A DNA stretch of 64,000 bases from the IMG/VR virus record IMGVR_UViG_3300027499_000006, positions 10,950 to 74,949 of that record. One strand, written 5' to 3'. Positions 30,556-33,500 of the stretch are shown one piece after another (position 1 is the stretch's first letter; the number at the start of each line of letters is the position of its first letter). The DNA comes from a virus. The notes beneath the pieces are model-generated. The model made no database searches, was not told where the DNA came from, and saw only the letters and a list, made by a program, of their open reading frames with translations. Both the position numbers and the translations under genes were made by a program.

Positions 30556-33500
30556 ATGGTACAACAATATAACCTTTCTCCTGTTTACCGATACTTCACT
30601 GCTGACCTACTGACAAATCAGATTCTCGCGGAAATCCCTTTTCGGGGTGTAAGTTACGAACGGGCGCTCCGTGGGGCTGGTACTTTTCAGGGCTCTATAG
30701 CAGTTGTAGATGACACAAGGTACTTGAATCTCTACAACTCAACAATGCCCGGAAATACCGCTCTCTATGTTGTTCGCGATGGAGTGTGTGTTTGGGGTGG
30801 GATTATCTGGACTCGAGACTACAACATCGTTGAGCGGAGCCTAAATGTTTCTGCCTCTGAATTTACTAGCTATTTTTATCACCGAAGGATTTGGAAGACT
30901 TGGAATCACCAATTTGAAGCGACAGTAATTGTCAACAACGACGTTGCAGATGTCACTTTATCTCTGGGCTCTACAACTGCGCTATCTCCTGGAGCTTCTG
31001 TCTATCTTCAGTTTAATAATGTTTCATTTAATAGATACAATAACTATTACCAAGTTGGCGGGACAGTGCAACCCACAACCAGTAGCTTCACCATAGACAG
31101 TGTTACCAAACAAGCTGATGTTATTCTGCTTTCTCGGGAAGATGGCTCGGTAACTTTGACCATGGATGCCCCCCACAACTTCTCTCTAAATGACGTTATT
31201 GTTGTTAATCTTCCAGACTATCCAACACTGAATGGCACTAGGACAATATCCTATGTTGGAGGTTCTGAGGGAGAGAAACTTAGCTACTTAGTCAGCGGAG
31301 GGGATATTGACGAGACTCCAGCAGTAGGAACAGTTACAAGGACTATTGCAAATGGGACGTATACAGGGGCTACTGTCACCGTTCGTGCAGATACCTATGA
31401 CTATGTTCGTAGTCTCATCGACGGGGTATTTACGGACTTTGTGGGGGTTGATTTTCCCAATACATACATTGAGCCTGGAACTAGATATAGCCTAGGCATC
31501 ACACAGCGGAGGCTAGAGGATGGAATTGCAAGTCTATGGACTGACTCTTCGCACCGACTCTTCCCCGGTCAAGCTATTGTTGTGCAAAATATGGACCCCG
31601 TATTTGATGGCGAGCACAGGGTGCTATCTGTTCCGCAGAGCAATAGATTCACCATCCCCCTCAGCGGAACTCTGGCTCTCGAGAATGTCGCCCCTAAAGT
31701 TGCGCAGATTCAGTCGATAGAGGCTGTGTCGGGGGACACGACAATAACTACGGTGTCACCGCACAACTTTTTGGTTGGGCAAATTGTAGACATCAGAACT
31801 GAGCTAGGATTCGATGGACTCGGCAGATGTCTAAATGACTCCTATGAAATTACAGAAATAGTAAGTAGCACAAAGTTTAAATATACAAAACCATCAAGAA
31901 TTGACGTACCTAGAACCACATTTACTCCCGCAACTGCCGTTCTCGGGGTAAGTACTAAAAATGTCATCAGGGCTGAGCTAACAAGTAATGTTGCCACCAT
32001 TACAACGGAATCGCCTCACGAGTTTGAAATTGGAGATACGGTAACCATAGCTGGTGTTTCTCCTATTGCAGAGATTTCGCAGAGGGCTCTGGATGCGGCT
32101 GGTGGGGTAGCAACAATCACCACTAGGCTTCCTCATGGATTTTCTACTGCCGACGAAGTTATTATCAGTGGTCAGAAAGACTCTCTCAAGCTGAAACTCA
32201 AAACTATTGCTAGTGCTAGTGGCATCAACAAGCTAGTCACTTTTACTACTGAACGCTCGCATAATCTTATAAAGGGCAGTGTAGTTGATATCAGCGGGCT
32301 GACCGATACGCACAGGCTGACAAATAAAGTTTTGACATCCAACGTAGCAACAATGACTACCGCTGAAAATCACAACATTCCAGTTAGTAGCTCAATAACT
32401 ATTAAAGATGTCTATGACGAATACCTAACCAGAAATGAACTGGACTCTAGATTTCTCCAAGAAAACACAGCAACTTTAGTTCTTACTACTAACCACAACA
32501 TTCAAGTTAACGAAAAAATTATTGTCTCCGGTCTTACTGATGTGGGTCAGGTCGTATCAAGAGAGCTACAGAATAAAATCGCCACTCTTAATCTTCAAAC
32601 TGTTCACAACTTCTTCGTTGGGGATGAAATTGTTGTGGCTAGTGTGGGGTCTCCTTTTAATGGCACCCACAAAGTCTCATCAGTGACTGGAACATTTGTG
32701 TCCTATGAGCTCCCGAATATTAATCCTGCTGATGCCGTTGTGGCTAGTAAAAGTGGTGGAACAGTTACCAGCAAAAACAGTGTTTTTAATGGAGAGCACG
32801 TCGTTATTGAAAGAACCAATACAAGAGTCAGCTTTAAAAAAGAAGCAAATCCAGTCTCTCCGAGGTCTGCCCCAAACGGGAAAGTTAGGGTTCTTAGCTC
32901 TGTTTTTAACGGCACCCATACCGTTACTGGAAGAACTAACAACACTTTTACTTTTGCTAAGGTGGCAAATAACTCTTCGTCTGTAGCGATACCAGCTCCA
33001 GCTAATCAAGATATTCCGCCCTCTATTGTTTCTGTTGAGAGCATCCACACTGGGCAAAGAACTATAGGTTCTGTTACTAGAAATACTTTTTCATTTTTGC
33101 AAGCAAACATTACAAATCTTATTACCAATGCCTCTGCCACAGGTTTTGCTATTACAGATAGCGTATTTAATGGCACATACAACAGCATCACTGTTCTGTC
33201 TCCGACAGTTTTTACATACCCTAAAGCAGGGCAGAGAAGTAATATTCTTGAATCTACTGCCAACTCTCTTGCCTATGCCAGAGCCCCTCAGATTTTTAAT
33301 GGCTCTCGCGTCATTACTGCTATTGACACTGATGAGAACACATTTAGCTTTGCAAGGACACATTCCGACCTTGCGGGAGCTATTTATGTTGGATACGGAA
33401 GTGCTGTTGTATCTCCAAAAGTTATTTCCAGCACATTTGGTCCTTACCCAGGAAATTCAGATATTGGTCTTGAATTCCCGACGCAAGGGTTTTCTTCCTA

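Follow-up and report, generated by a model that had tools for sequence, protein, structure and literature searches.

The gene described here lies in a stretch of viral DNA of 64,000 nucleotides (the window; positions 10,950 to 74,949 of the IMG/VR virus record IMGVR_UViG_3300027499_000006) from an uncultured actinobacterial phage, a large siphophage. The open reading frame (ORF) at 30556-34257 on the plus strand encodes a tail hub (Tal-like) protein of 1233 amino acids (aa), P0001. Very probably, this protein is a Tal-like hub into one loop of which a six-deep homotypic nest of small beta-barrels has been inserted, forming an arm of fixed length that would act as a scaffold for cell-wall binding.

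Twelve half-domains and the barrel they form

In P0001 a run of six N-halves (aa 464-697) is followed by a run of six C-halves (aa 698-952). The first-pass annotation had claimed this order, N1-N6 then C6-C1, for positions 31981-33410 (aa 476-951), and all twelve motifs were indeed located in the translation of the ORF: the N-half histidines at aa 488, 527, 569, 606, 647, and 684, and the C-half FNG-type motifs at aa 701, 744, 784, 831, 871, and 914. Each N-half comprises three strands, namely a long linking strand, an ATITT-type strand, and, after HxF, a VxIxG strand, and each C-half an FNG-type turn followed by four strands. The spacing within both runs is a regular 37-47 residues, and the break falls at the identical spot in every copy, in the short loop between the strand ending in VxIxG and the (S)xFNG turn; both the order of the halves and their common insertion point can be read directly from the sequence. 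Only the innermost of the six pairs is contiguous, again as had been noticed at first (N6 at aa 673-695, C6 from aa 698). Three more copies of the barrel stand upstream of the nest, at aa ~184-263, 308-380, and 381-463; they had been described as ordinary contiguous copies, and they are present at these places, except that copy 2 is apparently an outer shell closed by a strand at aa ~955-959, as discussed below. The features of the gene are the following, with the evidence in parentheses:

30556..34257, +, tail hub gene, P0001, 1233 aa (ORF list and translation; phrog_1885 minor tail protein, E 1.7e-32; 357 homologues)
30574..30960, +, hub frame, N-terminal part, aa 7-135 (phrog_1885 profile; hub-fold matches starting at aa 1-13)
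31105..31344, +, barrel copy 1, aa 184-263, contiguous (hidden Markov model (HMM) matches N 189-217 and C 225-264; match of the full model to solved barrels over aa 185/186-262)
31477..31695, +, barrel copy 2, aa 308-380, main part, probable outer shell (HMM N 314-346, C 349-383)
31696..31944, +, barrel copy 3, aa 381-463, contiguous (HMM N 382-413, C 427-462)
31945..32646, +, outward limb: N1 aa 464-502, N2 503-541, N3 542-584, N4 585-621, N5 622-662, N6 663-697 (motifs; HMM 34-47 bits; secondary structure of the model)
32647..33411, +, return limb: C6 aa 698-740, C5 741-780, C4 781-827, C3 828-867, C2 868-910, C1 911-952 (motifs; HMM 22-46 bits; pairing from structural alignments and covariation)
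33412..33441, +, closing strand, aa 953-962, probable final strand of barrel copy 2 (structural alignments ending at aa 959-963)
33442..34254, +, hub frame, C-terminal part, aa 963-1233 (phrog_1885 profile; hub-fold matches ending at aa 1034-1098)

The first half-domain HMMs gave nine N matches (31-36 bits each) and eight clear C matches (26-35 bits) on P0001; they had been derived from P0001 itself and therefore needed independent checks, and extended models, built from 50 homologues, detect nine N- and nine C-halves. At the DNA level the copies resemble one another only over short stretches of 14-27 nt, most clearly around the FNG codons, because of which the copies are taken to be old and a recent duplication was rejected.

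That the N- and C-halves form one FCCH-like beta-barrel of about 75 residues and six to seven strands is supported by sequence profiles as well as by solved structures. The two half-domain models match side by side, as a contiguous domain, in the upstream copies of P0001, and the major tail protein (ORF 16239-17294, plus strand; phrog_792) has a single uninterrupted barrel (N 42 bits, C 33 bits) spanning aa 235-311. The Pfam family E1_FCCH (PF16190) aligns to N1 by profile positions 5-33 of 70 only, that is, by its first half, as expected for an interrupted domain; P0001 fails the gathering threshold of this family (26.5 bits against a cut-off of 29.5), and precomputed PF16190 matches are present in many of its homologues. 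No solved structure matched P0001 by sequence at E <= 1, and a Pfam search with the hub termini alone and the upstream copies alone found nothing. In structural comparison, single barrels of the predicted nest match FCCH and FNR-type barrels: the E1 FCCH domains align to barrel 6 with Z-scores of 7.0 (9mc4_A, 74 residues aligned, root-mean-square deviation (rmsd) 2.7), 6.9 (4p22_B), and 6.2 (2v31), and to the full-length model with Z 7.3-8.7 (8.4-8.7 on barrel copy 2), 9mc4_A and 4p22_B superposing on the models with an rmsd of 2.6-2.9 over 72-78 residues. The near-invariant residues of the repeat, His-Asn in the N-half and Phe-Asn-Gly in the C-half, lie in every copy at the turns that flank the insertion point.

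Pairing of the outward and return limbs

An AlphaFold2 model of aa 455-965, built with a 50-sequence alignment, is all-beta, with a predicted local distance difference test score (pLDDT) of 90.9 and a predicted template modelling score (pTM) of 0.72, and its outward limb has a strand of 10-13 residues ahead of each N-half. An exhaustive structural search with this model, which reports the first and last aligned residue of each match, placed solved barrels as follows:

N6+C6, aa 661-741, contiguous: phi92 endosialidase barrel 4hiz_A, Z 9.4, rmsd 2.1, 79 residues aligned; 9mc4_A, Z 7.0
N5+C5, aa 621-779: 4ce4_E, Z 6.5, 70 residues aligned
N3+C3, aa 542-868, discontiguous: 8qq5_A, Z 8.9, rmsd 2.5, 81 residues aligned over a span of 327
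N1+C1, aa 457-935: 9fmv_A, Z 6.5, 69 residues aligned

Since whole solved barrels align to both limbs, each barrel of the model would consist of Ni and Ci in anti-diagonal order, and for barrels 1, 3, and 5 the discontiguous alignments reveal domains built from distant segments with other copies lying between them.

Covariation leads to the same pairing. The nests of the 121 stored homologues were aligned to the profile, and the 117 with <15% gaps (effective number of sequences 96) were used to score covariation as mutual information, with average product correction, between N-half and C-half columns. The nested pairing Ni-Ci ranks first among all 720 permutations, by mean score as well as by its share of the top-0.5% couplings, the parallel pairing ranking 637 and 666; and for N1, N2, N3, N4, and N6 the matching C-half is the strongest partner among the eleven other segments.

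The third line of evidence comes from relatives. The nearest cultured homologues of P0001 belong to the Microbacterium phages A3Wally, Zooman, Big4, Pumpernickel, and Cece (39-42% identity). With the extended half-domain models the exact string NCNCNC-NNNNNN-CCCCCC is found in 47 of the 121 close homologues, most of the others having a weak C-half of the upstream copies missed, and the six-deep nest aligns across in all 121. In a wider profile search of 1.84 billion representatives, which returned 1708 proteins with an E-value up to 0.001, N/C strings were analysed for 249 proteins: the counts of N- and C-halves are equal in 88, and 86 of these 88 are well-formed nestings, against 10.7 expected by chance. 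Nest depths among the domain proteins are 1, 2, 3, 4, and 6, with a single protein at 7, balanced nests of depth 2-4 thus occurring in other proteins bearing the barrel (P0234, for instance, is a protein of 343 aa with an NNNCCC nest), and 33 domain proteins end after their N-half run, the arrangement of the Dit type described below. The pairing of Ni with Ci is, therefore, supported by the model, by covariation, and by the family comparison, and the insertion scheme proposed at the outset, in which each copy enters the same loop of the preceding one and the chain passes N1-N6 on its way out and C6-C1 on its way back, agrees with the model, the discontiguous alignments, the covariation, and the well-formed strings of the family. 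As side observations on these relatives, P0155, P0226, P0195, and P0234, all outside the hub family, mix balanced depth-2 or depth-3 nests with plain tandem copies of the barrel, the very large P0155 (2411 aa) and P0226 (6564 aa) having several separate nests of depth 2 and depth 3. One candidate for a split hub gene, P0140, which reads as CCCCCC plus the hub C-terminus, was rejected, since it is incomplete and sits where a 1768-bp contig breaks off.

The nest probably has one further shell. The phi92 endosialidase barrel and E1 FCCH align to aa 308-959/963 of the full-length model (77-79 residues aligned), and for this reason copy 2 seems to be closed by the strand that follows C1 (aa ~955-959); copy 2 would then probably enclose copy 3 and the nest as the outermost shell, making the nest seven shells deep. 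The closing strand (aa 953-962) and copy 2 are reciprocal top covariation partners, with a weak signal (0.82% of column pairs in the top 0.5%), and the strongest partners of copy 3 are N1 and C1. If copy 2 does close in this manner, the last of the insertions would be at a different loop of the barrel. Another apparent insertion is copy 1 (aa 184-263), whose host domain would consist of aa ~118-183 and 264-279.

The hub, its arm, and the possible role of the arm

The identity of P0001 as a Tal-like (gp27-like) tail-tip hub is supported by the model and by family comparison. Positions 11-134 of the phrog_1885 profile correspond to aa 7-133 and positions 147-342 to aa 967-1179, and profile positions 134 and 147 are thereby set ~830 residues apart. 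In the full-length model (aa 1-1200, pLDDT 78.9; about 50-90 in the frame), the frame made of aa 8-135 and ~963-1100 matches baseplate hub (Tal/gp27-like) chains from aa ~8 to ~1040-1098, with 160-212 residues aligned. The matches include a baseplate chain of mycobacteriophage Douge (8zdo_s, Z 10.5, 201 residues aligned, rmsd 3.9), the Bxb1 tail tip (9d93_Oa, Z 9.7), Mu gp44 (1wru_A, Z 8.2), phage 80alpha (6v8i_AE, Z 8.0), VgrG (2p5z_X, Z 7.9), and p2 ORF16 (2wzp_R, Z 7.6). Because both halves of the frame match the hub chains and neighbouring positions of phrog_1885, the array of ~830 residues is a single insertion in a hub loop, from aa ~135 to ~963, which supports the earlier proposal that it projects from the baseplate hub. 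The gene order fits as well: the tape measure gene (20334-24437, phrog_4197) is followed by a Dit-like ORF (24434-27256, PF22768 SPP1_Dit), the ORF 27260-30532, and the P0001 gene, an order that is identical in Microbacterium phage A3Wally (gp97-gp100).

In the build that we propose, the ~830 residues spliced into one loop of the hub fold would have as their core a homotypic nest of six FCCH-like barrels, each sitting in the short loop that leads from the VxIxG strand to the FNG turn of the preceding barrel. On its way out the chain would form the opening three strands of barrels 1-6 and on its return, in reverse order, the remaining four, giving an elongated arm with both chain ends together at its base. 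Because its two ends meet there, a loop of a folded domain could accept such a nest, and the barrel could be nested in itself because its own ends lie together and its loop tolerates an insert; a nest of any depth would keep both ends at the base. There would be one arm per hub subunit, presumably standing out from the tail tip, and the linking strands of 10-13 residues would run from barrel to barrel and stiffen it, a stiffness that we infer from the pTM of 0.72 and the long linking strands of the model.

The first-pass annotation had also suggested that arm length could be tuned by adding or removing matched pairs. The close homologues speak against this, all 121 having a depth of six, and the length of the arm looks fixed in them rather than tuned. 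Variation among the homologues takes the form of added whole units or foreign modules, not of unmatched halves: P0047 and P0071 have extra NC units on either limb; P0053, P0061, P0065, and P0066 carry an insert of 190-250 residues between N2 and N3; P0088 and P0015 have a CBM_4_9 module at the base of the rod, where copy 3 gives way to N1; and P0101 has PG_binding_1 on the return limb. In the hmmalign alignment large inserts are concentrated close to the N2/N3 junction and in the region of barrels 5-6; the alignment is used for this statement only, as its placement of inserts in a repeat context differs in detail from the half-domain maps. Since the depth is constant while the modules hung on the nest vary, and include carbohydrate- and peptidoglycan-binding domains, the arm is most likely a scaffold of fixed length that holds or presents cell-wall-binding modules; its function, whether as spacer or as scaffold for adhesion to the cell wall, is something we infer.

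Several points weigh against the reading as a whole. The Ni-Ci pairing in the model is deduced from the residues at which structural alignments begin and end, and the model and the covariation draw on the same family alignment and are, therefore, not fully independent. N5 covaries most strongly with C2 rather than with C5. A Mantel-type test of the N against the C similarity matrices places the nested mapping at rank 567 of 720, the pattern of similarity among the six copies giving no hint that Ni and Ci share a history, on matrices that are nearly flat (17-32% identity) and hold little information. The equality of N and C counts, which had been predicted for homologues in general, is seen in 88 of the 249 domain proteins, and all the close relatives keep the six-deep nest; the strings of 101 of the 249 domain proteins are off by one or two halves, which we attribute to weaker detection of C-halves. 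With regard to function, conservation is much the same in all six barrels (31-40% mean pairwise identity), with no receptor-binding tip marked, and Pfam recognises no carbohydrate-binding module in P0001 itself at E <= 0.01.

Alternative readings differ in what they dispute. The one that fares best accepts the nest and makes the arm mainly an adhesin, whose lectin-like barrels would bind cell-wall polysaccharide directly and multivalently instead of acting as a passive spacer. In endosialidase NF the equivalent barrel is an insertion in the propeller and binds sialic acid. Given that the endosialidase barrel of phi92 is the best solved match of the P0001 barrel (Z 9.4), it offers, together with the CBM_4_9 and PG_binding_1 modules added in homologues, a lead toward adhesion; the barrel also decorates the tail tube protein, and FCCH-like barrels are described as pointing outward from the tail tubes of siphophages (PMC13576161). 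However, the near-invariant residues at the turns flanking the insertion point fit a structural role, and P0001 has no Pfam match to a lectin or carbohydrate-binding module; the barrels themselves possibly bind glycans, which is a weaker case than that for the scaffold, and we regard a primarily adhesive arm as unlikely, if deserving of attention. A second alternative keeps the nest and moves the pairing between chains, the N-limb of one subunit of the hub trimer being completed by the C-limb of its neighbour. Pairing in trans appears possible in the Dit region, where a run of N-halves precedes the end of one ORF and C-halves close the next, and covariation is blind to the difference between pairing within a chain and pairing between identical chains; every barrel is nevertheless closed in cis in a confident monomer model, and with a link of two residues between N6 and C6, barrel 6 at least has to close in cis, which makes a shift of register between chains unlikely and such domain swapping highly improbable. 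That the halves form two separate tandem arrays, as stacked sheets or solenoids that pack with their sequence neighbours and make no Ni-Ci barrel, is barely credible: the two uninterrupted runs with their 37-47-residue spacing and some covariation between neighbouring N-halves (N1-N2 0.67, N2-N3 0.76) would suit it, but in the major tail protein and elsewhere in P0001 both halves make one contiguous barrel, solved barrels align in full only with residues of both limbs, covariation puts Ni-Ci first of 720 and, in five of the six N-halves, ahead of pairing with N-half neighbours, and N and C counts match across unrelated proteins.

The same barrel recurs in this phage. As copies are found in the major tail protein, the Dit-like ORF, and P0001, it is used on the tail tube, the Dit, and the hub. 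In the Dit-like ORF (24434-27256, plus strand), a single contiguous barrel precedes a run of about six or seven N-halves and one C-half, after which the ORF stops; ORF 27260-30532 (plus strand), with an fn3 and a glycine-rich domain, ends with at least three C-halves. The view of Tal as an in-cis control for a split Dit is consistent with this run of N-halves in one ORF and the C-halves at the end of the next.

Comparison with known nested and inserted domains

The closest solved analogue of the nest, which we do not take to be a relative, would be Si3 of the cyanobacterial RNA polymerase beta' subunit (RpoC2), an insert of 150 A with eight repeats of the sandwich-barrel hybrid motif, four of them formed from distant sequence segments (PMC10895346, 8EMB). 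It is the top Foldseek match of the nest model (E 7.4e-05), at a template modelling score of 0.11, that is, with poor overall superposition. Both are long all-beta inserts in a loop of a host domain, built of repeats of one small beta domain of which some are discontiguous. The repeat of Si3 appears, however, to be a different domain from the FCCH-like barrel, its host is the trigger loop of an enzyme rather than a virion protein, and its nesting is irregular, whereas that of P0001 is a strict six-deep series at one loop.

Single closed beta-barrels of this small kind are found in E1 FCCH (PF16190; 2V31, 4P22, 9MC4) and in the endosialidase (4HIZ); in P0001 they are nested and interrupted. The E1 FCCH and endosialidase barrels are themselves domains inserted into a larger host domain. 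In its gene position after the tape measure and Dit genes and in its hub fold (Z 7.6-10.5), P0001 resembles Tal/gp27-like hubs (8ZDO, 9D93, 2WZP, 1WRU), but unlike the Tal-type hubs compared it has no lysin or fibre extension after the hub part. It also resembles "evolved" Tal and Dit proteins with inserted carbohydrate-binding modules, in that its family has extra modules in the loops of the frame and homologues with CBM_4_9 and PG_binding_1; unlike in evolved Tal, the insert is ~830 residues long and a recursive nest of one domain rather than one or two independent binding modules. Contractile sheath proteins form a "Russian doll" series in which successive domains are inserted in the previous one (PMC6088184), and in these proteins as in flagellin, which with its outer domains (9AU6) is among the Foldseek matches of the nest model, the polypeptide runs outward and comes back, the outermost domain being an unbroken stretch of it. 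Their nested domains are of unrelated folds and at most three or four deep; in P0001 a single domain is nested in copies of itself, six and probably seven deep. A search of open-access papers and preprints found no description of nested or recursive insertion of FCCH-like barrels in phage tails, and searches of the ESM Atlas and BFVD returned homologues and other FCCH-rich phage proteins only, none of them named. Domain insertion in evolved Tal and nested repeat arrays such as Si3 are kinds already known, of which the homotypic nest in this phage hub is a variant.

Splicing a long protrusion into a loop is normally impossible, as the ends of the protrusion would be far from each other. When one small barrel is nested in itself recursively, the obstacle disappears at any length, and this device is apparently used by the hub and Dit of this phage and by many tail proteins of uncultured phages. 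It is quite possible, although we would not go so far as to expect it, that the FCCH-like barrel is a self-nesting block that gives phages a general route to stiff arms of set length from baseplate loops, in one chain (the hub, six to seven deep) or in two (Dit), with depth serving as a ruler of the baseplate. Nesting also explains the large size of these minor tail proteins and corrects their domain annotation, since interrupted domains drop below Pfam thresholds and resemble two different repeats. As a natural scaffold of defined length that displays binding modules, the nest bears on receptor access by phages of Gram-positive hosts, and it can be put to the test in cultured relatives, namely the Microbacterium phages A3Wally, Zooman, Big4, Pumpernickel, and Cece. 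Adjoining the hub gene, the gene at 34260-38399 (plus strand) encodes a 1379-aa collagen-repeat tail fibre (Pfam Collagen; phrog_5073, phrog_6320), which may be a central or side fibre attached to the hub.

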